From a virus (lineage: Duplodnaviria; Caudoviricetes): DNA of 42,087 bases. Positions 209 to 19,069 of the stretch are shown piece after piece (position 1 is the first letter of the stretch; each line of letters opens with the position of its first letter). The translations under genes and the position numbers were made by a program. The stretch is from positions 1 through 42,087 of the IMG/VR virus record IMGVR_UViG_3300032266_000400. One strand, given 5' to 3'. The notes beneath the pieces are model-generated. The model was given only the letters and a program-made list of their open reading frames with translations, was not told where the DNA came from and made no database searches.

Positions 209-285
209 TGGGGTAACCAATGGGGAACGATCCCATTCTATCGCTTTCACAGAGCGAGGTGCTAAACCTTTACACTATGGTTACC
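209..285 (-). tRNA. tRNA-His(GUG)
   Basis: Cloverleaf; anticodon arm TCGCT-CTGTGAA-AGCGA; encoded G-1 and C73; CCA end. Confidence 0.93.
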
Positions 286-291
286 ATAAAT

Positions 292-386
292 TGGTGGGGA
301 ATATTGGAATCGAACCAATCAAGTTTGATTTTGCGGTACATATTCTAATACAGAATACAGTTGCTTCACCTTGAAGCGTATTCCCC
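292..386 (-). ncRNA. tRNA-like RNA whose anticodon arm is replaced by a TATTCT/AGAATA hairpin + GTACCGCAA module
   Basis: Acceptor GGGGAAT/ATTCCCC-A-CCA, D arm GCTTC/GAAGC, T arm ATTGG-TTCGATT-CCAAT; no canonical anticodon loop. Confidence 0.7.
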
Positions 387-392
387 ATTAAC

Positions 393-470
393 TGGTCTGT
401 GCGGTAGGATTTGAACCTACGATTTCTCACTTCCAAGGCGAGTAGATTAACCAGACTTTCTCACACACAG
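393..470 (-). tRNA. tRNA-Pro(UGG)
   Basis: Anticodon arm CTCGC-CTTGGAA-GTGAG; C1-G72, A73; CCA. Confidence 0.93.
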
Positions 471-478
471 ATAAAACT

Positions 479-587
479 TGGTGGATTGTAAGGGACTTGA
501 ACCCTTGTCAGACCAAGAGTGCGGTGGCGCACACTCGATAATGCTCCTACGGCTATTCACCGTGCATGAGACCATCCTTGACAACCC
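479..587 (-). ncRNA. mini tmRNA-like / alanine-acceptor tRNA-like RNA (109 nt)
   Basis: Acceptor GGGTTGT/ACAATCC with G3-U70, A73, CCA; GAC before T arm AAGGG-TTCAAGT-CCCTT; no D stem; two internal hairpins instead of an anticodon arm. Confidence 0.6.
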
Positions 588-594
588 ATAAACT

Positions 595-686
595 TGGCCC
601 CTGAGAGTGGGATTGAACCACCAAGGTCTGAACCAACCTTTTTGACCTACTAATAAGGACGACTTTACCGATTCGTCTACTCAGAG
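595..686 (-). ncRNA. degenerate tRNA-like RNA with long variable arm, anticodon unresolved
   Basis: Acceptor CTCTGAG/CTCAGGG-G-CCA, D arm, T arm GGTGG-TTCAATC-CCACT, variable hairpin AAGGTT/GACCTT; weak anticodon stem lacking U33. Confidence 0.55.
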
Positions 687-692
687 ATAACT

Positions 693-766
693 TGGTGGAC
701 CGCCGGGGAATCGAACCCCGATAACTAACGTGCAAGGCTAGGGTAATCCCATTATACTAGCAGCCC
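693..766 (-). tRNA. tRNA-Ala(UGC)
   Basis: Loop CTTGCAC; G3-U70, A73; CCA. Confidence 0.93.
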
Positions 767-778
767 ATGAAAATAATT

Positions 779-853
779 TGGTAGCCAATGATGGGAACGA
801 TCCATCGACCCCCGCCTTATCAAGACGGTGCTCTACCACTGAGCTAATTGGCC
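779..853 (-). tRNA. tRNA-Ile(GAU)
   Basis: CCGTC-TTGATAA-GGCGG; CCA. Confidence 0.93.
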
Positions 854-858
854 AAACT

Positions 859-934
859 TGGTGGTAATAGTTGGACTCGAACCAACGATAGACTGCGTAT
901 GAAGCAGTTGCATTAGCCACTATGCTATATTACC
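859..934 (-). tRNA. tRNA with CAU anticodon (elongator Met or lysidine-Ile2)
   Basis: ACTGC-TTCATAC-GCAGT; paired 1-72 so not initiator; CCA. Confidence 0.88.
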
Positions 935-1029
935 ATATAGAAACACACTACCAGTCCCGGGGATTCGAACCCCTTTCTCTTGTAGTTTACCACGACTTTT
1001 GCAGTCAGGCAAGCAATGTGTTCTTATAT
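935..1029 (-). ncRNA. candidate ncRNA: long terminal stem enclosing a tRNA T arm
   Basis: ATATAAGAACACA...TGTGTTTCTATAT terminal pairing; internal GGGG-TTCGAAT-CCCC T arm and GACT-GCAAA-AGTC hairpin; no CCA. Confidence 0.5.
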
Positions 1030-1102
1030 GGTGCTCCTTGCTGGTAACGATCCAGCGTCTATACATTACCAATGTATTATAATACCTTTATACTAAAAGA
1101 GC
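1029..1102 (-). tRNA. tRNA-Thr(GGU)
   Basis: ATACA-TTGGTAA-TGTAT; CCA. Confidence 0.92.
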
Positions 1103-1106
1103 AAAT

Positions 1107-1183
1107 TGGTGCGACCGGAGAGATTCGAACTCCCGACTCCTAAGTTCGTAGCCTAGTACTCTATCCAGCTGAGTTACGGTCGC
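1107..1183 (-). tRNA. tRNA-Arg(ACG)
   Basis: CTAGG-CTACGAA-CTTAG; canonical D and T arms; CCA. Confidence 0.95.
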
Positions 1184-1189
1184 ATTGAT

Positions 1190-1264
1190 TGGTATTCCGT
1201 ATGGGTTTTGATCCCATCTCAATAGTTTGAAGGACTATCGGCCACGCCAGCTGCCTCACGGAAT
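1190..1264 (-). tRNA. atypical tRNA-Glu(UUC) (C33, G8, T loop ATCAAAA)
   Basis: Acceptor ATTCCGT/ACGGAAT-A-CCA; anticodon arm ATAGT-CCTTCAA-ACTAT. Confidence 0.65.
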
Positions 1265-1273
1265 ATAAAATAA

Positions 1274-1341
1274 CAGGATAGTTTTGTCGATCAGGACAAT
1301 AAACAATTTGAGTGATCTGAGTTATTTGCAGAACCTATCCT
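1274..1341 (-). ncRNA. stand-alone small RNA: AGGATAG-GTTCTGCAAA...CTATCCTG
   Basis: 7-bp terminal stem plus the GTWCYGCAA motif also found inside the tRNA-like RNAs at 292-386 and 1429-1555. Confidence 0.55.
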
Positions 1342-1346
1342 TAAAC

Positions 1347-1421
1347 TGGTACCTAGTGTAGGAGTCGAACCTACGACATTCCGCTAATCGGGCAGACGTT
1401 CTTCCGCTGAACTAACCAGGT
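1347..1421 (-). tRNA. atypical tRNA-Ile(GAU)-like (C33, U37)
   Basis: Canonical acceptor, D and T arms and CCA; anticodon arm TCTGC-CCGATTA-GCGGA. Confidence 0.7.
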
Positions 1422-1428
1422 ATAATAT

Positions 1429-1555
1429 TGGTGGAGATGCCGGGATTCGAACCGCGGACAAGAACTTTTACAGAGTTATAGCTAGTTGATTGCAGAACTT
1501 ATTCTTGTCAGAATAATTTTTTTGCTTTGCTATGCTACCATTACATCACATCTCC
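1429..1555 (-). ncRNA. tRNA-Tyr(GUA)-like RNA with ~50-nt insertion between D arm and anticodon arm
   Basis: Acceptor GGAGATG/CATCTCC-A-CCA; D arm; insert TTATTCT-GACA-AGAATAA-GTTCTGCAA; hairpin AACT-CTGTAAA-AGTT; bulged T arm with TTCGAAT loop. Confidence 0.7.
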
Positions 1556-1561
1556 GAAACT

Positions 1562-1635
1562 TGGTGCGGGGTAAGGGAGTCGAACCCTTGACTAAACGTT
1601 GGCAACGTTTGATTTTTCCGCTAAACTAACCACGC
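1562..1635 (-). tRNA. tRNA-Gly(GCC)
   Basis: AAACG-TTGCCAA-CGTTT; CCA; A73 rather than the bacterial U73; one acceptor mismatch. Confidence 0.88.
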
Positions 1636-1642
1636 ATAAAAC

Positions 1643-1721
1643 TGGCTCCGTATCTGGGTAACGATCCCAGCTAGTCATTGATTAACAGTCAAGTCCGTGC
1701 ACCATGCTCGGATTCTACGGA
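1643..1721 (-). tRNA. tRNA-Asn(GUU)
   Basis: TTGA-CTGTTAA-TCAA; G73; CCA. Confidence 0.87.
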
Positions 1722-1728
1722 ATAAATT

Positions 1729-1804
1729 TGGCAGGGGAGATGGGATTCGAACCCATGATGACGATTTCAAAGACCGTTGCCTTAGGCCACTAGGCGACAC
1801 CCCA
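1729..1804 (-). tRNA. tRNA-Gln(UUG)
   Basis: ACGGT-CTTTGAA-ATCGT; unpaired 1-72, G73; CCA. Confidence 0.93.
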
Positions 1805-2058: not shown

Positions 2059-2087
2059 ATTATAGCAGAGTATCCATTTACTGTAAA
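2059..2087 (-). promoter_or_regulatory. sigma70-type promoter directed into the tRNA array
   Basis: TTTACA-17 bp-TATAAT with extended -10 TG. Confidence 0.75.
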
Positions 2088-2112: not shown

Positions 2113-2147
2113 AAAAACCCCTGAGACTTTTTAGTTTCCCAGGGGTT
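2113..2147 (-). terminator. intrinsic terminator (attenuator) upstream of the tRNA array
   Basis: AACCCCTGGGA/TCTCAGGGGTT stem followed by U tract. Confidence 0.8.
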
Positions 2148-2191
2148 GAATAAATTTTGTTATGATGTAACTAGTTATTCCTCTCCCCGGG
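2138..2191 (-). promoter_or_regulatory. antiterminator hairpin overlapping the leader stop codon and the terminator 5' arm
   Basis: CCCGGGG/CCCC(T)GGG + GAATAA/TTATTC + GTTA/TAAC nested helices. Confidence 0.65.
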
Positions 2192-2309
2192 CTCCTCTTT
2201 GGTTATCATTCCCGCGAATACTTGTAGGATATGATACCGCAAAGGCCGCTAAGGTCTCTATAGACCATAGTCCCGTATGTTTCGGCATGTAACAAGTTTT
2301 ATTCATCAT
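2175..2309 (-). CDS. putative attenuator leader peptide, 44 aa (MMNKTCYMPKHTGLWSIETLAAFAVSYPTSIRGNDNQRGARGEE)
   Basis: ATG..TAA open frame between promoter and terminator; all 20 amino acids, 35 distinct codons; too short for the ORF track. Confidence 0.7.
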   Translation of the reverse strand: MMNKTCYMPKHTGLWSIETLAAFAVSYPTSIRGNDNQRGARGEE

Positions 2310-2376
2310 AGTATTCTATTTAGTCCTGGTTAAAAATAACTGCAAATTACATAGTGTTTTTTGCGTTTATGTGTGT

Positions 2377-2405
2377 ATTATATAGTAGTTTTGTGTTGAA
2401 GTCAA
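2377..2405 (-). promoter_or_regulatory. sigma70-type promoter for leader peptide / tRNA operon
   Basis: TTGACT-17 bp-TATAAT. Confidence 0.78.
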
Positions 2406-2464: not shown

Positions 2465-4060
2465 ATGAGTAAAGAATTTAAAATCTACAAATACGAGATT
2501 GTCTATCTTAGCTATGATGAGCCTAATGCACAAGCAAATTGGGAAAATTTGTTAAAAAAAGTTCCATATGCTAGGCGTGTACACGGAATCAAAGGTAGTG
2601 ACGCTGCACACAAAGAAATAGCAAAATACACCAGCACCGAAAGAGTTAATATTATAGATGGCGATAACATCATTGATGAAAATTTTCTACATCAAATACT
2701 CACACTTGATGATTCAGTAGATGAATCTAAAACAGTTTTTAGTTGGCCTAGCAGAAATATAATCAACGGATTATTATATGGCAACGGCGGAATCAAATGC
2801 TGGCCAGTGCAAGCAATACTTGATATGCGTACACATGAAAATGCAGAACCAAATGACCCCAAGACTCAAGTGGATTTCTGCTGGGCACTGAATTATATGG
2901 CAATTGATAAATCTTATTCAGTAGTATATAATAATACTAGCAAATTACAAGCCTGGCGATCTGGATTCCGTGAGGGAGTAAAAATGAGTTTAGACAATGG
3001 AAACAAAGTCGATGATTTATCTGACTTAAACATAGGAAATCTGAACCGATTGCGTATTTGGATGACTACTGGTATAGATGTTGACAATGGGATATGGGCT
3101 ATATTAGGTGCTAGACAAGGGTGCTATAAAACACAATATACAAATTGGGACTATACTCAAGTACGTGATTTTGATTACTTAAATGAATTGTATAACTCTA
3201 CAGTTGAACAAATGTCGGTAATGGATGCAATAAACGAATGTAAAACTTTAGGTCACATTATCCCAATATGTGAACCATTTACCAGTGAACAAAGCAAATT
3301 TGTTAAAAGCATAGAGTTCAATCCTGATAGACAACTTAAAACAATACACTCAGTTGATACTATCAACGAATATGAGTATGACATTGTTATGGTTACTTAC
3401 AATGAGCCCAACGCTGAAGAAAATTGGTCTAATCTTAAAAGTAGATTTCCAAGAGCAAAACGAGTTGACGGTGTTAAAGGAATACACAATGCACATGTTG
3501 CTGCTGCTAAACTAGCACGTACTAAGATGTTCTGGGTAGTTGATGGTGATGCTGTCATAAACAAGAACTTTCATTTTGATTATATCGTGCATCCAAACAA
3601 GATGGATCATGTTCACGTTTGGCGTAGTAAGAATCCAGTCAATGATTTAGAGTATGGATTTGGAGGAGTCAAACTATTCCCTAGAGAAATGACTCTTAAC
3701 ATGGACATGAGTAAGCCTGACATGACCACAAGTATCAGCACTAAGTATAAGCCTGTCTTTGAGGTAAGCAACATAACAAGTTTCAATACTGATCCATTTA
3801 GTGCTTGGCGTAGTGCTTTCAGAGAATGCTGTAAGTTGTCAAGCAAAGTAATTGACAGACAGAATGATAGTGAAACAATAGAAAGATTACGAATTTGGTG
3901 TATGATAGGTCTTGATAGACCACACGGGTACTATGCTATCACTGGGGCAACTGCCGGTAAAAAGTACGGTGAAAGTAACATAGGTAATCTAGAAGCGTTG
4001 AAAAAAATCAATGACTTTGTTTGGTTAAAGGAAATATTTGATGCCAATAAATTGGACTGA
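2465..4060 (+). CDS. tandem two-domain GT-A fold glycosyltransferase-like protein
   Basis: Internal duplication: YDEPNA..NW / YNEPNA..NW, RVHGIKG / RVDGVKG, DxD motifs IIDGD / VVDGD, YGxGGxK, AWRSxFRE. Confidence 0.75.
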   Translation: MSKEFKIYKYEIVYLSYDEPNAQANWENLLKKVPYARRVHGIKGSDAAHKEIAKYTSTERVNIIDGDNIIDENFLHQILTLDDSVDESKTVFSWPSRNIINGLLYGNGGIKCWPVQAILDMRTHENAEPNDPKTQVDFCWALNYMAIDKSYSVVYNNTSKLQAWRSGFREGVKMSLDNGNKVDDLSDLNIGNLNRLRIWMTTGIDVDNGIWAILGARQGCYKTQYTNWDYTQVRDFDYLNELYNSTVEQMSVMDAINECKTLGHIIPICEPFTSEQSKFVKSIEFNPDRQLKTIHSVDTINEYEYDIVMVTYNEPNAEENWSNLKSRFPRAKRVDGVKGIHNAHVAAAKLARTKMFWVVDGDAVINKNFHFDYIVHPNKMDHVHVWRSKNPVNDLEYGFGGVKLFPREMTLNMDMSKPDMTTSISTKYKPVFEVSNITSFNTDPFSAWRSAFRECCKLSSKVIDRQNDSETIERLRIWCMIGLDRPHGYYAITGATAGKKYGESNIGNLEALKKINDFVWLKEIFDANKLD

Positions 4061-4852: not shown

Positions 4853-5935
4853 ATGTACAAATTATCAGATATAAAAGCCGTTCATTTAGAAATAACACAG
4901 CGTTGCCAAGCTGCTTGTAGTATGTGTGATAGAAACATGAATGGGGGAAGTATAAATCCACATTTAGATTTAAGCGAATTATCACTAGTTGACATAAAAA
5001 AAATTATGTCCCCTGAATTTATTTCACAATTAGTAAGTATGCAACTATGCGGCAATCACGGTGACCCTATTATAGCCGAAGATACATTAGCAGTGCTGGA
5101 ATATATTCGTGAACACAATCCTAAAACTTTTATAACTATGAATACTAATGCGGGCGCCAGAGATATAGATTGGTGGACTAAATTAGCTAAAATAATTAAT
5201 AGAAAAGGATTTGTTATTTTTAGCGTAGATGGGTTAGAAGATACTAACCATTTATATAGGCAAAATGTGCAATGGCATATTGTTGAACGGTCCATGCATG
5301 CCTTTATTAGTGCAGGGGGCAGGGCAAGATGGGATTTTTTAGTATTTGAACATAATCAACACCAAGTCGAACAAGCAAAACTATTGTCAGAACAATGGGG
5401 ATTTGAAAAATTTGTAGTTAAAAAAAGTGCAAGATTCTTAAGTTCGAACACGGTTCCAAAAGAGTCTCACCAAGCAGTAAATCGCAAAGGTGAAAAAACC
5501 ATAGAAATTAAAAAACCAGCAGAACACTTACAAAATTCAGTACTCAAAAATCAAACCAATATCATTAAAAAATATAATTCAATGGATGAATACTATGATG
5601 TTGCAGAAATTACATGCAAAGTAAAAAATGAAGGCAGTATGTATATTAGCGCCGAAGGCATAGTATTGCCTTGTTGTTGGACTGCTAGTAGAATGTATAA
5701 GTGGTGGCAAGAAAACCCCAAAGCTGAACAGATTTGGGAATTCATTGAAAAAGCAGGGGGCAAAGATTCGTTGAATGTAAAATTGTTTGGTTTAGAACAT
5801 GTATTTTCAACTGGGATATTTGAAGATATAGAGAATAGTTGGAATAAACCAAGCTGTAGTGAAGGCAAATTAAAAGTATGTGCTATGAAATGCACAAAAG
5901 AATTTGATGTAGTAAGTTCACAATATGACAGATAA
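4853..5935 (+). CDS. radical SAM protein with C-terminal SPASM/twitch-like Cys domain
   Basis: CQAACSMC; GNHGDP; FSVDG; C-terminal C..PCC..C..CxxxC. Confidence 0.88.
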   Translation: MYKLSDIKAVHLEITQRCQAACSMCDRNMNGGSINPHLDLSELSLVDIKKIMSPEFISQLVSMQLCGNHGDPIIAEDTLAVLEYIREHNPKTFITMNTNAGARDIDWWTKLAKIINRKGFVIFSVDGLEDTNHLYRQNVQWHIVERSMHAFISAGGRARWDFLVFEHNQHQVEQAKLLSEQWGFEKFVVKKSARFLSSNTVPKESHQAVNRKGEKTIEIKKPAEHLQNSVLKNQTNIIKKYNSMDEYYDVAEITCKVKNEGSMYISAEGIVLPCCWTASRMYKWWQENPKAEQIWEFIEKAGGKDSLNVKLFGLEHVFSTGIFEDIENSWNKPSCSEGKLKVCAMKCTKEFDVVSSQYDR

Positions 5936-7337
5936 AGCAAAATTGTCACCTACTTTTTGTGCTTTACCATGGATGCATCTAAGTAGTAGACCAGATGGCA
6001 AGATGCGTACTTGTTGTACTAGTAATGCTAGTTCTGTGCAAGACCCTGATTCTAATTTAAAGATTGGCGGAGGAGAGGTTGGAGTAGTGCGAAACGATGA
6101 TGGAATACCTGCTAACTTTAATCATACCAGTCTAGAAGAAGCATGGAACTCTAGCTATATGCGTAATGTACGCAAGATGATGCTGCGAGGAGAAAAACCG
6201 GCAAGTTGTTTAAAATGCTACAAGGAAGAAGATGCAGGTCATCTAAGCAAACGTAATTGGGAAACTAATTATTGGGCTGACAGATTCAACTTAAATGAAT
6301 TGATAGACGAGACTGATGCCAATGGTAAGATTCCACCAAAGATACGTTATATTGATTTGCGTATGGGAAGCAAATGCCAATTAGCATGTGTTATGTGTAG
6401 CCCGCATGATAGTTCTGGTTGGATCAAAGAATGGAACTCTATATTTCCAAAGATACAAAATGATAAATTAAAAAACACAAGTCAATGGGAAAACAAAGGA
6501 CAGAACGACGGTGCTAGTTATAATTGGCATAAAAATAATCCAAAATTTTGGAATGATTTATACGCACAAATTCCACATATGTATCAATTATACTTTGCCG
6601 GCGGTGAGAGTTTGATAATCGAAGAACACTATGATTTGCTTGAAGAATGTATTAAAAGGGGATATGCTAAAAATATAGAATTACGTTATAACTCAAATGC
6701 AGTTGAATGGCGTGATAATTTATTTGACCTTTGGAAAGAGTTCAAACGAATTAGATTTCATTATAGTATAGATGCATACGGGGAACAAAATGACTATATA
6801 AGATACCCTAGTAACTGGAAACACCAAGAAGAAGTATTTTGGAAATTAGACAATACTGCACCCCAAATAGAAATTACCACAGCGACTACGCTCATGGCAT
6901 TAAATGTAGGTACTATCCCAGAGTTTACTAAATGGAAAATAGAGCAAGGATTCAAGAAGATTAATCGCTGGCCTTTGGGTGCAGGTGGAATAAATATGCA
7001 CTTTGCTTATTGGCCACCTCAACTCAATGTAAAAGTATTGCCAGCTAGTGTTAAAAAGACTATTACTGAAAAATATGAAAACGAGTTCTATCCATGGATA
7101 GATGAAAACTGGAACAAATTTACTGGGGTAGCTGAACAAGGGATATCTAAAGAAACATTTTTAGAAAACCCATATGGCATAAAAAGATTTAAAGGGATAA
7201 TTAATTTTATGAATTCTGAGGATTGGAGTCAACGTTTGCCCGAAACTAAAGAATACATCAATTTAATAAATGCACAGCGAGGATGGAGTGATAAATTCTT
7301 GCAAGTATTTCCTTTGTTTGAGAGAGTGATGAAATAA
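5925..7337 (+). CDS. radical SAM protein with N-terminal twitch-like Cys domain
   Basis: FCALPW..CC..CLKC then CQLACVMC, AGGES, YNSN, SIDA. Confidence 0.88.
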   Translation: MTDKAKLSPTFCALPWMHLSSRPDGKMRTCCTSNASSVQDPDSNLKIGGGEVGVVRNDDGIPANFNHTSLEEAWNSSYMRNVRKMMLRGEKPASCLKCYKEEDAGHLSKRNWETNYWADRFNLNELIDETDANGKIPPKIRYIDLRMGSKCQLACVMCSPHDSSGWIKEWNSIFPKIQNDKLKNTSQWENKGQNDGASYNWHKNNPKFWNDLYAQIPHMYQLYFAGGESLIIEEHYDLLEECIKRGYAKNIELRYNSNAVEWRDNLFDLWKEFKRIRFHYSIDAYGEQNDYIRYPSNWKHQEEVFWKLDNTAPQIEITTATTLMALNVGTIPEFTKWKIEQGFKKINRWPLGAGGINMHFAYWPPQLNVKVLPASVKKTITEKYENEFYPWIDENWNKFTGVAEQGISKETFLENPYGIKRFKGIINFMNSEDWSQRLPETKEYINLINAQRGWSDKFLQVFPLFERVMK

Positions 7338-7338
7338 T

Positions 7339-7920
7339 ATGAATTTTAAATTTAATAACGAAATTCCAGGATATGCATGCCGGGAAGAATGTGAAACGAT
7401 ATGCAATATCATTGGTAAAGGTGAATACTATAATATACTTGAGGTAGGATGTTTTACTGGAAGATTAACGTGGAGTTTGTGTCAAACCTTTACTGATGCA
7501 CAAATTACTGTATTGGATATATGGGAAGGACAAATTGATTTTATGTTTACCAAAGAAGCATCTGGTCCTAGAAATTATATCAATTATTTTAGAGATGAAA
7601 AATTTATCAATAAAAGAAACACCCCGGAGTTTTTTAATTCACTGCAAGAAGGACATACTAACTTAACTGTAATACATGATAACTTTTATAATTACAATAC
7701 ACAACATGATGTAATAATATTAGGAGCAGATGATAAAAAAATGATGCATGAAAATTTAATTGATCATGCATTATTATTACGTCCTAAACTTATTATTGGC
7801 AGACATGCTCACAGTCATAAACCAATAATAAATAAAGCATTAGAACTGTATGAAATAGAACGATACGACCCGTACGGGGTTTATGTCGTTAAAAACAAAA
7901 AGGATACATTTAATGAGTAA
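7339..7920 (+). CDS. class I SAM-dependent methyltransferase
   Basis: ILEVGCFTG motif I; VLDIW motif II. Confidence 0.7.
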   Translation: MNFKFNNEIPGYACREECETICNIIGKGEYYNILEVGCFTGRLTWSLCQTFTDAQITVLDIWEGQIDFMFTKEASGPRNYINYFRDEKFINKRNTPEFFNSLQEGHTNLTVIHDNFYNYNTQHDVIILGADDKKMMHENLIDHALLLRPKLIIGRHAHSHKPIINKALELYEIERYDPYGVYVVKNKKDTFNE

Positions 7921-9271
7921 TGGAACATTCTGTCCACTTCCTTGGAACAGTATTAATTTAAGAAACAATGGTGATTTACGCATTTGCTGTAATACAAATA
8001 GTTATAGTCCTAAAAAAGGAATTATGCGTAAGGATGACGGTACCCCTTACAATGCAGGCAAAGATGATTGGAACGAAGCACGTAACGCTAGTCTATTGAA
8101 AGAAGTTAGAGCAAGCATGTTAAAAGGCGAGTGGAATCCAGAATGTGAACGTTGCCGACAAGAAGAAACAAACGGTATTCGTTCACGTAGAGAATATGAA
8201 GCTGAGGATTGGGGAAAGTGGCTTGGAAATTTTATTGATTTAGAAAAAGCAAAATCAATGACTGAAGAAGATGGTACTTTAGATACAAGTAAACAAGATA
8301 TTAATTTTATCGACATAAGGTATGGAAATTTTTGCAATCTTAAATGTCGCATGTGTGGACCTACTGACAGTCATCAATGGTACAATGATTTTGTGGAATT
8401 ACGAAATACAACATCATATATGGACACGCATGATAAAGTACAATTGGTAAAAAATCAAGATGGTAGATGGACAACTGGTCAATACGATTGGTTTCAAAAT
8501 AATGATAAGTATTGGGAAAATTTTGAAAAATATGCTACCACTGCACACAAATTATATATAGTCGGTGGTGAACCATTGATAATTGATGAGCATCTAGAAA
8601 GTATTGAACGTTTGGTGGCTAGCGGTAATGCAAAAAACATTAGATTAGAATACAATACCAATCTAACAATTCTTCCAAACAAATTAGTAAAATTATGGGA
8701 AAATTTTAAAGAGATTAGAATAGGAGCTAGCATTGACGGAATTGGTGAAGTGTTTAACTACCAAAGAACCCCTGCAAATTTTGATCAAGTTTATAATAAC
8801 ATGATGAAACTAAACAATAATGAAAACATAAAATTAAAAGCATGGTTTGCACTTACAGTAACACCATATAATGTATTTCATTTTCCAGAGTTTATGAAAT
8901 GGAAATTAACTACTAGTGGATTAACTAAATTTAATCCTACCAAAGATTACAGACCTATCGTGTCGCATCACATGTGCCATGCTCCAAAACATTTCAATAT
9001 TAAAGTTCTGCCGGCACATTTAAAACAACAAGTAGTAGAACATTATCAAATGTATATTGATTGGATTAATTCAACTGACATGACAGATCATGTTAAAAAA
9101 GAATTTATTAAAATATCAAATGGTGTTACTAAATTTATGAATTCAGAAGATTATAGTGATCAATGGTTAAATGAGTTTATAACTTTTACAAACAAAGTAG
9201 ATGCTTTACGTGGACAAGATATACGAACAATTGTACCACAATTTAAGGATATGTTTGATGCAAGTAAATAG
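7913..9271 (+). CDS. radical SAM protein with N-terminal twitch-like Cys domain
   Basis: FCPLPW..CC..CERC, CNLKCRMC, VGGEP, YNTN, SIDG; start moved to ATG 7913 (AGGA SD upstream). Confidence 0.88.
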   Translation: MSNGTFCPLPWNSINLRNNGDLRICCNTNSYSPKKGIMRKDDGTPYNAGKDDWNEARNASLLKEVRASMLKGEWNPECERCRQEETNGIRSRREYEAEDWGKWLGNFIDLEKAKSMTEEDGTLDTSKQDINFIDIRYGNFCNLKCRMCGPTDSHQWYNDFVELRNTTSYMDTHDKVQLVKNQDGRWTTGQYDWFQNNDKYWENFEKYATTAHKLYIVGGEPLIIDEHLESIERLVASGNAKNIRLEYNTNLTILPNKLVKLWENFKEIRIGASIDGIGEVFNYQRTPANFDQVYNNMMKLNNNENIKLKAWFALTVTPYNVFHFPEFMKWKLTTSGLTKFNPTKDYRPIVSHHMCHAPKHFNIKVLPAHLKQQVVEHYQMYIDWINSTDMTDHVKKEFIKISNGVTKFMNSEDYSDQWLNEFITFTNKVDALRGQDIRTIVPQFKDMFDASK

Positions 9272-10190
9272 ATATGAAGATATAACTTTTGATATGTTGG
9301 GTACACGCCGAGCGCGCCCTATGAATCTGTCAAAATTTGCTAAATTTAGATCAACTTTAGATATGAAAAATTATCCAAAAGATACTGCTAAATACGCAAA
9401 GAGTTTCTTGATGGAGATTGATCATTGGATCAATCTTCATAAATTTGTTAAATATATCGGGTTAGAATCACTACCTCATCAGAATGTAATTTTAGGAACT
9501 ACGCATCAACTTGATGAATTACATCAATTATACGGAAATCGCATTGTTACTTACGTTGGTGAATACAAATATCATCGTAGATTAACAGATTTTAAAGTAA
9601 AACAAATTAATCATTATAGTGAATTGAGTATTGGAGATGTTTTTATAGTAAGCTATCCAAGTTGTATCACTACTAATTATCACACTGATTTTGATCTGTT
9701 GTTAGATCATTGTCTTGTCAATAAAATACCTGTACATATAGACGGGGCTTGGTTTGGACAATGCCGTAATTTTGAGTTAGATGTTACACATCCTGCAATA
9801 GAAAGCGTTAGTGTAAGTTTAAGCAAAGCATTGGCAATGGGGAGTCAGCGTATAGGAATTAGATATTCTCGCAACAAAATATTAGGCCCAATTAGTATTA
9901 TGAATGATTTTGAATATTGCAATGTTAGTGATATGTGGATAGGAGTAGAATCAATGAGACACTTTGGACCTGATTATTGGTGGAGTAATTATAGTGAGTT
10001 GTATTCTAAAGTCTGTAATGATTTTAACTTAGAAGAAGCAGATAGTATCCATGTAGGGTGGCTCAATAATAATACAGGGAAGCATCAATTTGGAGTAAGA
10101 ACTCCATTACGCATGTTAATTGAAGGAATATTTGATGAGCGTGGCACCGACAATGGATTAAACAAGATTGAAAGAGAAGAACGCAGATGA
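9258..10190 (+). CDS. PLP-dependent (fold type I) aminotransferase/lyase-like protein
   Basis: SYP, HIDGAW, SLSK (Schiff-base Lys), RIG motifs; start ATG 9258 with AAGGA SD. Confidence 0.72.
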   Translation: MQVNRYEDITFDMLGTRRARPMNLSKFAKFRSTLDMKNYPKDTAKYAKSFLMEIDHWINLHKFVKYIGLESLPHQNVILGTTHQLDELHQLYGNRIVTYVGEYKYHRRLTDFKVKQINHYSELSIGDVFIVSYPSCITTNYHTDFDLLLDHCLVNKIPVHIDGAWFGQCRNFELDVTHPAIESVSVSLSKALAMGSQRIGIRYSRNKILGPISIMNDFEYCNVSDMWIGVESMRHFGPDYWWSNYSELYSKVCNDFNLEEADSIHVGWLNNNTGKHQFGVRTPLRMLIEGIFDERGTDNGLNKIEREERR

Positions 10191-10870
10191 TATACGGTTC
10201 CTACAATATAGATTTAGATATTGAATTTTATAGGAACGAGGCTAAAATTTTCTTAGAATCAGAAAAAGTAGAAACAGCTGGAAGATATAATTTTAATAAA
10301 TTTATTAGTCTTACTAAAGAGTCTAAAATAGATTTAACTAAATATTTTGCCAATACATTGGCAAGAGACTATGATTGGCATTGGGAATATTTTCATTCAG
10401 GACAACCGGTTGGATTACATACTGATTACACTGCATTTCCCAATGTTTGGAACACAGCAGCAAAACAAGAATGTCATGTAGTAGTAGGAATAATCATTCC
10501 ACTTGAGTGGAATTCAAAACAACCATACACTGTAAATTATAATAAAATAACAGATGTTCCTCGAAAATTAAAATATATGGAAGGTGAGATGAGGTACGTT
10601 GATAATTATGAAATTTTTAACTATAGAGATAAATGGGAATATGATACTGAATCATTAGTATACAATCCTAAAAAAACTGAAAATTATAAACAATTCGCCG
10701 ATCTAAAAATTCATAGTGTATATAAATGGGAAATAGGAACGGCAATGGTATTTGACACTAAAAGATGGCATAGTAGCAGTTGGTTTTTATCTGATGCTGA
10801 ATTACCAAAAGTTTCGGTTGAATATAAAAGAAGTATATTAGGTCTTGGGTCAATTAACATAAATAAATAA
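10187..10870 (+). CDS. 2OG-Fe(II) oxygenase-like protein
   Basis: HTD..IIIPL..W.IG.AMVFD...WHSS..KRS; paralog of 15511-16137. Confidence 0.65.
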   Translation: MIYGSYNIDLDIEFYRNEAKIFLESEKVETAGRYNFNKFISLTKESKIDLTKYFANTLARDYDWHWEYFHSGQPVGLHTDYTAFPNVWNTAAKQECHVVVGIIIPLEWNSKQPYTVNYNKITDVPRKLKYMEGEMRYVDNYEIFNYRDKWEYDTESLVYNPKKTENYKQFADLKIHSVYKWEIGTAMVFDTKRWHSSSWFLSDAELPKVSVEYKRSILGLGSININK

Positions 10871-10877
10871 AAATATC

Positions 10878-12014
10878 ATGACCGATAAAAAAGATGTTTG
10901 GTGCTCGTTACTTTGGACTCATGTCTGCATAAGATTAGATAATAAATTACAGCCTTGCTGTAGGTGGTTGGGTGGTGATACCATAACATTTGAACAACTT
11001 GAAAAATACGGTATTTCAGGATTAAACACTGATTATCTAAAACAAGTGCGAAAAGATATGTTAAATGGCATACCTCGCAAAGAATGTGACAAATGCTATC
11101 ACGAGGAAAACGCTGTTAACAAAGATAATAAAAAATTATCAATGCGACAACGTGCAAACATGCGAGATAATGTATCAAGAGAAAAATGTACCGAAGAATT
11201 TGATTCAATAAGATATATTGAAATGTCAGTAGATAATATTTGTAATCTAGAATGCAAAATGTGTGATAGTAAATTCAGCAGTAAATTACAAAGTAGAGAT
11301 AAATTTTTAGGAGATTTAGTTTACAAAAAGTTAGAACCAAAATTTAATAAATTTGACAATATTGACATATCCAAAGTAACTCGTGTTAAAATTTTAGGTG
11401 GTGAAGCATTCGTATCACCAAATTTCATTAAGTTTATTGATTATCTAATTGAGCGTACTAATCCAAACGATGTAACTATAGAAATTGCAACTAATGGATC
11501 ATGCGTTCCTGATAAAGAAATTATTGAAAAATTAAATCTTTTTAAAAATTTAGAGATAGGTGTTAGCTTAGATAGCTTTGATAAATCAAATGATTATCAA
11601 CGGTACGGTGGTTCATATTTAGAAACTTTTAACAATGCAATTTTATACAGAACCATTTTTAAAAATGTGCATGTTTTTACACATTCAGTAATAACTTTAT
11701 TAAATGCTAATACATTAGGCAATACTATCAATAAGTTAGAAAAACATTTTAGTACAACAATTGATTTTTTAAGAGCACCAATGCATTTATCAATTTTATA
11801 TGCCCCAAAAGAATATTTAGATTGGATTGTAGAATCAAATAGTCATAATGAAAAAGCAAGTTTGATGATAAATTCGATTATTAAAAGAAATACATATGAT
11901 GAAGTAGAATGGAATAAATTTTTAGATAGTATAAAAAAACTTGATAATTACTATAACATAGAATTAAAAGATTTCAATCAACCATTGGCAAATTTTTTAT
12001 TGAATTTTAAATGA
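10878..12014 (+). CDS. radical SAM protein with N-terminal twitch-like Cys domain
   Basis: WCSLLW..PCC..CDKC, CNLECKMC, LGGEA, TNG, SLD. Confidence 0.87.
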   Translation: MTDKKDVWCSLLWTHVCIRLDNKLQPCCRWLGGDTITFEQLEKYGISGLNTDYLKQVRKDMLNGIPRKECDKCYHEENAVNKDNKKLSMRQRANMRDNVSREKCTEEFDSIRYIEMSVDNICNLECKMCDSKFSSKLQSRDKFLGDLVYKKLEPKFNKFDNIDISKVTRVKILGGEAFVSPNFIKFIDYLIERTNPNDVTIEIATNGSCVPDKEIIEKLNLFKNLEIGVSLDSFDKSNDYQRYGGSYLETFNNAILYRTIFKNVHVFTHSVITLLNANTLGNTINKLEKHFSTTIDFLRAPMHLSILYAPKEYLDWIVESNSHNEKASLMINSIIKRNTYDEVEWNKFLDSIKKLDNYYNIELKDFNQPLANFLLNFK

Positions 12015-13123
12015 CTGACTTAAAACATAGCGAATACGACTTTACTAAAATACCATTTAAGGATATAGTGCAAGTAGGACAACGCACTCTACTATATCGT
12101 GACTTGTTTACTGTCAGTTGGTTATTAGGTAGATTCTGCAACTACAAGTGTAGCTATTGCTGGCCATACGCACGTAGCGACAAGAAGGACCATAGGCCTA
12201 CAGAATTATGTTTAAGTACAATAGATGAGATTAAACGACAAGCTAGGGGTAACGGGTTCAATAGTTTTCATTTTAGCCTGAGTGGGGGTGAACCTACGTT
12301 TCATCCTGGCTATCTAGATATACTCAAGTATCTAGCAGATGATGTAGATAACACAAATTATACTAGTATACACATGACTAGTAATTGTTCTAGAAACATG
12401 AAATGGTTTGAGACGTATGTAGAACATGCTAAGAAGTTTCATCGTGCTAGTATTACAGCAAGTCTGCATACCGAACACTTAGATACAACCGAGAAGATGC
12501 AAGACTTTGCAGACAAATTGATATTCTGTCAAGAGCATGATGTACAGATAACTATCAACATGGTTATGGTTCCCGCATGGTTCGACAGAGATTATGATAA
12601 CGCATTATTTTTTCACAACCAAGGTATCAATGTGACATTGAAGCCCCAAAGTGATCCTACTGCTAACTATGTAGTTAGTGGATACACCGACGAACAGATG
12701 AAACAATTGCACAATGGTATGCCCCAACGTGCATATACTGAAGTTAAGCGTATTTGGAAAGATAGACCTATACCTAAATTTCAAATGCCACCAAATACAT
12801 TAAATAGTAATGATGCATCAGTTCCTGCAAATATGCAAGTTGAGTTTACTGACAGCACAGGCAAAAAATGGTATATGGATCAAGCAGAAAGATTCAATGC
12901 GTTTGGATTCAACAATTTTAAAGGTTGGATGTGCAACAGTGGATTTCAAGGTATAGTTATCAGAGAGCCAGATGGTAATATAAAACGTAGTTATAGCTGT
13001 ACTGATATTCCATTGGGAAACATAGAGACTGGATTCAAATTATTTGATAGGCCTATGATTTGCATCAGTCCTAATTGTGTTAGTAGTGCAGATAGTAAAT
13101 TACCAAAAAGATTAATAAAATGA
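12011..13123 (+). CDS. radical SAM protein with C-terminal Cys cluster
   Basis: CNYKCSYC, SGGEPT, TSN, C-terminal C..C..CISPNC. Confidence 0.88.
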   Translation: MTDLKHSEYDFTKIPFKDIVQVGQRTLLYRDLFTVSWLLGRFCNYKCSYCWPYARSDKKDHRPTELCLSTIDEIKRQARGNGFNSFHFSLSGGEPTFHPGYLDILKYLADDVDNTNYTSIHMTSNCSRNMKWFETYVEHAKKFHRASITASLHTEHLDTTEKMQDFADKLIFCQEHDVQITINMVMVPAWFDRDYDNALFFHNQGINVTLKPQSDPTANYVVSGYTDEQMKQLHNGMPQRAYTEVKRIWKDRPIPKFQMPPNTLNSNDASVPANMQVEFTDSTGKKWYMDQAERFNAFGFNNFKGWMCNSGFQGIVIREPDGNIKRSYSCTDIPLGNIETGFKLFDRPMICISPNCVSSADSKLPKRLIK

Positions 13124-17879: not shown

Positions 17880-18329
17880 TTACATTTCCTCCAATACTTT
17901 TTGATACGCTGCGGCGTGACGTTTTTCAATCTTGGCTAATGCACTAAAGCGTTTTTCAGCTTTGGTCAATAGTTCTTTGAATTGTTCCGCATGCTCCTTT
18001 GATTCTTCAATTTGCATATTAGCTTCATTGGCAAAAACTAAATTACCTTCGAATTCAGCAGTTTCTTTGAAGTTTGGATACATAGTTTCAAACTCATAAG
18101 TCTCGCCGTCGATTGCCATTTGCAAGCATTCTTTGGTAGTAGGTTTTCCGATTGATAACTCTAAGTGACCCCACGCATGTAGAATCTCTTGGTCTGCTGT
18201 GTGTTCGAAATGTTTTGCGATTTCCTCGTGACCTTCTTCACGGGCGATCTTTGCGAAATAGCGATATTTGGTGTGTGCTTGTGACTCACCTGCAAACGCA
18301 TCTGCTAGGTTTTGCATTGTTTGTGACAT
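17880..18329 (-). CDS. rbr: rubrerythrin (ferritin-like di-iron domain only)
   Basis: NLADAFAGESQA..Y, EILHA, GETYE..MYP, ESKEH. Confidence 0.9.
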   Translation of the reverse strand: MSQTMQNLADAFAGESQAHTKYRYFAKIAREEGHEEIAKHFEHTADQEILHAWGHLELSIGKPTTKECLQMAIDGETYEFETMYPNFKETAEFEGNLVFANEANMQIEESKEHAEQFKELLTKAEKRFSALAKIEKRHAAAYQKVLEEM

Positions 18330-18391
18330 AATTACTCCTTGTGTGTCTATGAGTATATCATACTCAAAAACTATTTATCTAGGAAATTATG

Positions 18392-18688
18392 TCAATCTTC
18401 TTTTATAATCAACCCATTGCTATGTTTGCCTCTAGGATGTTCTACATCCTGATCAAAGCGTTGTTCTTGTATGGTTTTGTGACCAAATACTTTCTCACTA
18501 TGACATAACAGACATTTTGGATTGCCACAATCTAATGCATGATGTTTTGCTAGACGATGCGGTTCTTTGAGAAACTTGTCATGACCTGTATGACCCATCC
18601 TTTTAGCAATATCTAATTGTTTATTGATGGCATTATCGTCCTTAAGCAAGCGTTTGCTATGCTTAATCTTATCTTGTTCAGTACTCAT
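18392..18688 (-). CDS. hypothetical protein with CGNPKCLLCH metal-binding motif
   Basis: ORF directly abutting iscU; Cys/His cluster. Confidence 0.7.
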   Translation of the reverse strand: MSTEQDKIKHSKRLLKDDNAINKQLDIAKRMGHTGHDKFLKEPHRLAKHHALDCGNPKCLLCHSEKVFGHKTIQEQRFDQDVEHPRGKHSNGLIIKED

Positions 18689-19069
18689 TTAATGCTTCTT
18701 TCGGTAATCTTCTATTGCGGCTTTGATGGCGTCTTCGGCGAGGATTGAACAGTGGATTTTGACTGGGGGGAGGGCGAGATGTTCGGCGATGAGTGAGTTT
18801 TTGAGGGTTCCAGCTTCATCCAATGTTTTACCCTTGACCCACTCTGTGACAAGACTTGAAGAAGCAATTGCCGACCCACACCCATATGTCTTAAATTTGG
18901 CATCTGTGATTAACCCCGTTTCTTTATCTACTTTAATTTGCAGTTTCATTACGTCGCCGCATGCTGGGGCACCAACCATTCCTGTACCCACATCTTCATC
19001 TTCTTTACTAAAACTACCCACATTACGCGGGTTCTCATAGTGATCTACAACTTGTTGAGAATATGCCAT
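18689..19069 (-). CDS. iscU: Fe-S cluster scaffold IscU
   Basis: DHYENPRNVG, GAPACGDVM, FKTYGCGSAIASSS, LPPVKIHCS. Confidence 0.97.
   Translation of the reverse strand: MAYSQQVVDHYENPRNVGSFSKEDEDVGTGMVGAPACGDVMKLQIKVDKETGLITDAKFKTYGCGSAIASSSLVTEWVKGKTLDEAGTLKNSLIAEHLALPPVKIHCSILAEDAIKAAIEDYRKKH

Follow-up and report, generated by a model that had tools for sequence, protein, structure and literature searches.

Why phages carry tRNA genes is described as a question open for more than 50 years (PMC10264068), and phage tRNAs are described as able to defeat tRNA-cutting defences (PMC11464382, PMC11555353). The locus analysed here raises the question of whether such genes can be placed under the control of a ribosome that samples the charged-tRNA pool. 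It lies in the window, by which we mean the whole stretch of 42,087 nucleotides analysed, a 42-kb virus contig of an uncultured lake phage that carries a ribonucleotide reductase frame. A preliminary description of this DNA had proposed that a leader peptide holding all amino acids gates a phage tRNA array by attenuation. The features that bear on this proposal all lie on the minus strand:

2377..2405, minus strand: P1, sigma70-type promoter of the leader, 11/12 matches
2317..2330, minus strand: AGGA box overlapping a TAAATA box ahead of the start codon, near-invariant in a family of relatives that was collected in part using this AGGA/TAAATA box itself
2175..2309, minus strand: leader ORF, 44 codons long, with its set of 20 amino acids complete at codon 37
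2138..2191, minus strand: antiterminator hairpin, codons 40-44 and the stop paired with the 5' arm of the terminator (folds, compensatory changes in the inner helices)
2113..2147, minus strand: intrinsic terminator hairpin and T run (folds, compensatory changes)
2059..2087, minus strand: P2, second sigma70-type promoter, past the terminator, 11/12 matches with an extended -10
2060..2077, minus strand: ORF2 remnant of five codons, inside the P2 spacer, at the site where most relatives start a gene of 48-58 aa
1837..2009, minus strand: structured non-coding RNA candidate, with a core at 2009-1952 and a long hairpin at 1911-1837
209..1804, minus strand: tRNA array, 11 genes with default ARAGORN and 13 on this strand when the threshold is relaxed

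The leader ORF of the window

The 44-codon ORF at 2309-2175 is present as claimed, and our recount agrees with the earlier one: the peptide holds 20 of 20 amino acids, the set being complete at codon 37, and is written with 35 distinct codons, including four Thr, three Ser and three Arg codons. Each amino acid occurs one to four times, and no codon run was found for any amino acid in the window leader. Among same-length windows of the window's own genes, 3 of 7193 (0.04%) combine 20/20 amino acids with at least 35 codons, and random DNA does so at 0.1-0.5%. Given the peptide, so many distinct codons would be unexpected under phage codon usage (p 0.016), yet not under uniform choice among synonyms (p 0.21), so that this part of the description holds on one standard only. 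The window leader samples 29 of the 32 decoding classes (p 0.01-0.04). Of 11 anticodons in the array, whose genes cover 11 amino acids besides one uncertain call (anticodon TTA), 5 have their exact codon in the leader. The leader is thus no mirror of the array, and resembles a probe of the general pool, not of the phage's own tRNAs.

Relatives of the leader

Four scans of viral contigs with an iterated, composition-blind profile, which took at least 203 of 4141 candidate frames, defined a leader family of at least 80 DNA sequences and at least 72 distinct peptides of 44-59 aa. Among the matches listed, 65 of 72 family peptides hold all 20 amino acids, seven hold 19 and none fewer, at a median identity of 39% and with one invariant column among the 72 peptides. 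Dereplication at 50-90% left 85-92% of the family complete. Three null models fell short of this figure: independently resampled columns were complete in 18% of cases, a null that alignment slips depress; mosaics of complete parents under 60% identity in 23-56%; and a tree simulation in 15 of 72, with a maximum of 42 in 300 runs, so that 0/300 reached 65. ORF2, a real small gene of the same loci, provides a further comparison, since 0/30 of its copies reach 19 amino acids (maximum 18). Rare residues that leave their usual column are found elsewhere in the peptide: this applies to Trp in 6/6 cases (against an extra Trp in 2/66), to Cys in 7/9 (extra Cys in 1/63) and to His in 6/6 (extra His in 6/66), although family members are kin and these counts cover fewer independent events. 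Cys, Trp and His have a mean of 1.0-1.1 copies and are present in 97-100% of the family. Single-copy residues change less than others (odds ratio 0.24); close pairs show 24 single-copy changes, of which some are one-column alignment slips. Distinct codons exceed the peptide-based expectation in 71/72 leaders against phage usage and in 60/72 against uniform usage, and the CTY, GTY and CGG classes are missing from 55-58 of the 72. The claim that stalling at any codon would be sensed was therefore overstated, with 29/32 decoding classes sampled, three mostly missing, and stalls within the last five codons that would not count.

The frame appears to be translated. Leader pN/pS is 0.38 (31 disjoint pairs), substitutions concentrate at third positions (225 against 136 and 114), the other two sense frames are interrupted by stops in 72/72 leaders, and the frame is preserved while leader length varies from 44 to 59 codons. 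As in known attenuators, a short ORF under coding selection thus lies between a promoter and the downstream genes.

Because one anchor had fixed several residues in 23 loci, independent sets of leaders were sought. An anchor on the downstream structured RNA gave 120 loci from 4/64 parts and, by a longest-ORF rule with duplicates dropped, 18 distinct leaders; 13 of these are complete, including 9 of the 14 missed by the family profile. Ten loci of this set had no terminator plus ORF, five of them with 300 nt or less upstream. In the control set 4/33 peptides hold 20/20, a count that gives no clean null, since three of the four (L330, L350, L351) are tRNA-array leaders themselves and the fourth (L373) is a near copy. 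A second anchor, on a terminator variant, gave 29 loci, from which one without upstream DNA and four ordinary long genes were set aside, and defined a third lineage of 20 distinct leaders of 35-48 residues. Three of these hold 20 amino acids, six 19, nine 18 and two a lower number; the mean is 18.5 against 16.7 in gene windows, and Trp and His are present in 20/20. Only 4/20 finish their set ahead of the hairpin, the last-added amino acid coming too late in 16/20. Since this lineage is mostly incomplete, at 18-19 amino acids, strict completeness marks the window's and several other lineages, high breadth marks the whole cassette, and 'pan-amino-acid' went too far as a universal rule. Pooled, 77 of 106 leaders are complete against 3.1 expected, with complete leaders in 7 of 11 similarity clusters. 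One might suppose that the ORF arose by chance within a structured non-coding leader, as about 2% of 44-codon frames hold 20/20 by chance; the pooled count and a frame held across 44-59 codons largely refute this, and we give it practically no credence. At the level of sequence comparison, these results demonstrate that the leader ORF is under selection to hold every, or almost every, amino acid.

Competing hairpins at the end of the leader

Both hairpins claimed for the window are more stable than expected: the terminator (2147-2113) has a z of -4.0, matched by 0/200 shuffles, and the competing hairpin formed by the end of the ORF a z of -2.9, matched by 1/200. A simple terminator scan misses the former because its loop limit is 8 and the loop here is 10. 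When a ribosome footprint is included in the fold, the terminator arm is trapped with P 0.96-0.98 at the A-site codons tested from 5 to 39, and with P 0.09 at codon 40, which places the switch point of the window at codon 39-40, the amino-acid set closing at 37. In the family, a terminator was identified in 69 of 72 loci, two of the others being truncated and one missed by the pattern. In nascent folds, the end of the ORF traps the terminator 5' arm in 69/69, that is, it acts as an antiterminator, and with a ribosome at the stop codon the terminator forms in 69/69. The second half of the ORF can also fold into a hairpin, a candidate for the protector (1:2) hairpin that gives classical attenuators termination without translation, yet in nascent folds a ribosome placed at codon 5 leaves the arm trapped. 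Both hairpins covary, with compensatory changes in the inner helices of the antiterminator and in the terminator; two-sided helix changes exceed shuffled and slid controls in 15, 39 and 8 cells, although kin can beat such shuffles, and the outermost antiterminator helix was left uncounted because its register shifts between lineages. Antiterminator stability was tested in 22 short leaders, 14 of which beat all but 1 of 100 shuffles; weak antiterminators, matched by 13-27 of 100 shuffles, occur in L039 and in the window's close kin L010, L011 and L015.

The amino-acid set is complete before the antiterminator begins in 68/69 leaders of the main family, which is where sensing codons of an attenuator lie: in 41/42 short leaders against 18 expected, and in 27/27 long leaders, whose hairpin begins 10-13 codons ahead of the stop, against 6.9. 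The gap from the complete set to the antiterminator is at least 5 nt in 65/69, with a median of 7-9 nt. This comes close to the spacing that leaves a stem intact on the ribosome, a stem being described as still folded at +12 from the P-site codon (PMC8861025). At equilibrium, the terminator wins in the full-length RNA of 46-78% of leaders with a ribosome at least 9 codons upstream of the stop (window, P 0.13-1.0); as the terminator is thus often favoured, read-through needs kinetic trapping.

The antiterminator seed occurs in all three reading frames (33, 12 and 19 of 72 leaders, 8 having no seed), so that the RNA is what is fixed and no peptide motif. This bears on a reading in which the peptide itself is the product, as a small effector or an arrest peptide, and the terminator is constitutive. 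Such a reading could draw on a pN/pS below 1, on a conserved SIRG-like stretch and on the RxPG-like end of the leader, which we take to resemble arrest motifs. With one invariant residue in 72 peptides and no Pfam or PHROG match to the leader peptide, with a PG/RG end that stems from an RNA seed present in three frames, and with a covarying antiterminator that it leaves without a role, we consider it very improbable.

Promoters and initiation

The promoters described at 2405-2377 and at 2059-2087 are borne out as promoter-like sites, each with 11/12 matches and the second with an extended -10. A P1-like site (at least 10/12) lies upstream in 62/69 family loci, and P2 lies downstream of the terminator in 52/64. 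The AGGA box, a long-spaced Shine-Dalgarno candidate by its sequence, is indeed 14 nt from the first ATG; this spacing of about 14 nt is conserved in the family and hence no defect of the window copy, and some other leaders have 11-14 nt. The TAAATA box presumably resembles a T4-type late promoter and would yield a nearly leaderless RNA; in many leaders the -10 box lies about 7 nt ahead of the ATG, which implies leaderless RNA. An imperfect inverted repeat between P1 and the start codon (2368-2338, minus strand), whose pairing is better in leaders of the long lineage, may form a 5' hairpin or serve as a protein site.

A long AGGA spacing suggests weak initiation, and would suit a switch that reports general translation speed or coupling, as affected by antibiotics, shut-off or initiation failure, the breadth of the peptide serving to average codon effects. 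The trapping of the arm at early codons, whereby absence of the ribosome would also give read-through, points the same way, as do the third lineage, with leaders of 16-19 amino acids, and the vmlR (PMC9226507) and whiB7 (PMC10274678) leaders, described as responding to antibiotics. However, averaging needs no exact single Trp, Cys and His replaced when lost, nor their presence at 1.0-1.1 copies in 97-100% of leaders, and we hold a general speed sensor to be quite unlikely beside a sensor of individual amino acids.

What lies downstream of the proposed switch

Where enough DNA is available, tRNA genes are found downstream of the leader in 45 of 48 loci, and upstream in none. Between the switch and the first tRNA, most loci contain a conserved structured RNA with covarying helices; the window copy (2009-1837) has no Rfam match and could be an antitermination or processing element. 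A possible pseudoknot was noted in this RNA, which also occurs at loci without detectable leader. The small gene ORF2 is present in 47/64 family loci and in 13/19 further loci (for example L198:192-356, minus strand), with at least 322 relatives. It has no Pfam, PHROG, PDB sequence, atlas or fold match and none in isolated phages, and is modelled as a two-helix protein (pLDDT 84). In 36/64 loci an ATG frame starts upstream of the point where the P2 -10 box ends; because its start is thus usually inside P2, ORF2 would be translatable only from read-through RNA.

These observations suggest another output for the same switch, namely an attenuator chiefly for ORF2 or the structured RNA, with tRNAs almost wholly transcribed from P2 and a switch in the window that only trims output. 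The frequency of ORF2, the presence of the structured RNA in most loci, the 36/64 overlapping starts and P2, which in 52/64 relatives could supply most tRNA transcripts, speak for it, and the last of these makes 'gating' of the array an overstatement. Against it, 17/64 loci, including the window's lineage, keep the leader without ORF2, and at least five loci (L153, L174, L192, L224, L230) have neither ORF2 nor P2 in the 300 nt scanned, so that the switch is their only predicted route to the structured RNA and the tRNAs. We judge this alternative unlikely, though it deserves to be taken seriously, and retain the array among the outputs.

Several units of the array depart from ordinary tRNAs. 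At 595-686 (minus strand) lies an ARAGORN call with the ochre-suppressor anticodon TTA, to which Rfam gives no score; as the call is also absent in relatives L003 and L004, it may be a degenerate tRNA. The window genes read normally in table 11. Units at 1429-1555, 480-590 and 295-385 (minus strand) are tRNA-like, with a T arm, a CCA end and an enlarged middle, and are not called as tRNAs; the first has a weak tmRNA model score of 18.8 bits, below the cut-off.

Distribution and cultured phages

The nearest isolates by the NrdA of the window are the Xanthomonas phages BUDD and X1 (about 60%), and relatives of the window reach 200-350 kb. Both cultured phages have an unannotated 39-codon ORF (in X1 at L416:4351-4470) heading the main tRNA array, with 19 amino acids in X1, where Cys is the one missing, and 18 in BUDD. 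A terminator like that of the window follows in the same layout, together with a hairpin that competes with it (-23 kcal/mol in X1 and -28 in BUDD). The amino-acid counts are modest alone, being reached by 8% and 26% of gene windows, and the likeness to the window leader is in the layout. Directly ahead of the first tRNA, X1 positions L416:4810-4830 contain what we take to be a likeness of the rRNA-operon boxA. No such leader was found in the stretch examined at the array head of Ralstonia phage RSP15, nor within 600 nt of the second tRNA cluster of BUDD. The paper on X1 reports 34 tRNAs, and its main text does not mention a leader, attenuation or a terminator (PMC13384950). Since X1 is in culture, with strain 8004 as its recorded laboratory host, the question can now be put to the test on its similar unit.

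Among 50,697 isolated phages, blastn with the leader region found only six chance hits (E 0.2). Our first terminator pattern was too strict and matched 0 viral contigs. A search by neighbour gene gave nine loci, three with the leader, five distant ones without tRNA and one without upstream DNA. A GTDB scan with the strict terminator pattern returned one contig (L293), from a Neisseriaceae-labelled MAG, with an identical leader peptide, the same neighbour gene and eight tRNAs; it is probably a binned phage, for which reason we infer from it neither a host nor anything about analogues in bacteria. Contigs from an RNA library span window positions 2135-2317 and 1954-2134, and a contig of a second RNA study extends to 2422, beyond P1; assembled contigs of either kind cannot show start, end, strand or level.

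Elsewhere in the window, several frames with radical-SAM-type cysteine motifs (4853-13123, plus strand) adjoin a glycosyltransferase-like gene with a weak Pfam match (2465-4060) and diverge from the leader. Frames at 17880-19069 (minus strand) presumably correspond to rubrerythrin and an IscU-type iron-sulfur scaffold, as read from sequence alone. Radical-SAM and tail-fibre-like names likewise come from our reading of the sequences, NrdA excepted.

Proposed mechanism

The region is a conserved leader cassette of large tailed phages, which probably acts as a ribosome-controlled attenuator for slow decoding of nearly any amino acid. The attenuator reading is partly supported, in that the ORF, its breadth and both hairpins are conserved and sit where attenuation by a ribosome would require them; its wording was in part overstated. 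That some ribosome-controlled switch operates at the leader is, from these patterns, highly probable; to broad sensing of charged tRNAs with output to the array we would assign a probability of about two in three. A ribosome keeping pace with RNA polymerase would reach codon 40 and cover the 5' strand of the antiterminator, and the terminator would form. With the ribosome delayed at codons 2-39, the antiterminator would be the first to fold, sequestering the terminator arm, and transcription would continue. With one copy per amino acid, the ORF would amount to a timed test of the whole charged-tRNA pool. The output for the window would be extra transcript of structured RNA and tRNAs above a P2 baseline; in most relatives, not in the window, read-through RNA would also be the sole possible ORF2 message.

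Candidate triggers are starvation, tRNA cleavage by host defence and infection-caused tRNA loss, and a link to anticodon nucleases is plausible. That a leader selected for every amino acid detects the loss of almost any host tRNA and delivers the array, the structured RNA and a small protein on demand is, in our view, an evenly balanced proposition. If true, some phages would make tRNAs upon decoding failure and not just for codon-usage matching, and the locus would amount to a viral operon for tRNA rescue, regulated and under feedback control.

Comparison with known systems

We found no description of a leader attenuator for phage tRNAs in a literature search at abstract level, with subscription papers mostly outside its scope. 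The trpL, hisL, pheL, thrL and ilv leaders sense one to three amino acids via codon runs. The phage leader shares with such amino-acid operon attenuators a short leader ORF, mutually exclusive hairpins and a stop about 30 nt before the terminator; unlike the trp/his/thr type, it has no codon runs, is two to three times longer and precedes phage tRNA genes. Completeness would here replace codon runs as the attenuator design, one that could be put to use for reporting tRNA loss in general. T-boxes, which require no ORF, directly bind a single uncharged tRNA; the likeness is in the coupling of tRNA charging to termination, and no covariance-model match to a T-box or any other Rfam family was obtained in the switch region of the window.

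The vmlR uORF attenuator of B. subtilis, as described, shares the default of read-through if the ribosome fails to advance, whereas attenuators of this type control resistance proteins and, as far as described, show no selection for all amino acids, and the phage leader precedes tRNAs (PMC9226507). The closest precedent for broad sensing is the whiB7 uORF of mycobacteria, described as an element at which stalling leads to an antiterminator and read-through and whose composition sets the amino acids sensed; the M. smegmatis uORF holds 19/20 amino acids, while whiB7 uORFs are 25-40% Ala and that of M. tuberculosis is without several amino acids (PMC10274678). The window leader is not of the whiB7 type in the strict sense of an Ala-rich uORF before whiB7/wblC, since it has 4 Ala of 44 and is followed by a structured RNA and tRNAs. 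The two are likened by design alone, the output being a transcription factor in one case and tRNAs, a structured RNA and a small gene in the other, and the phage leader differs from this precedent, so far as it is described, in that completeness itself is conserved.
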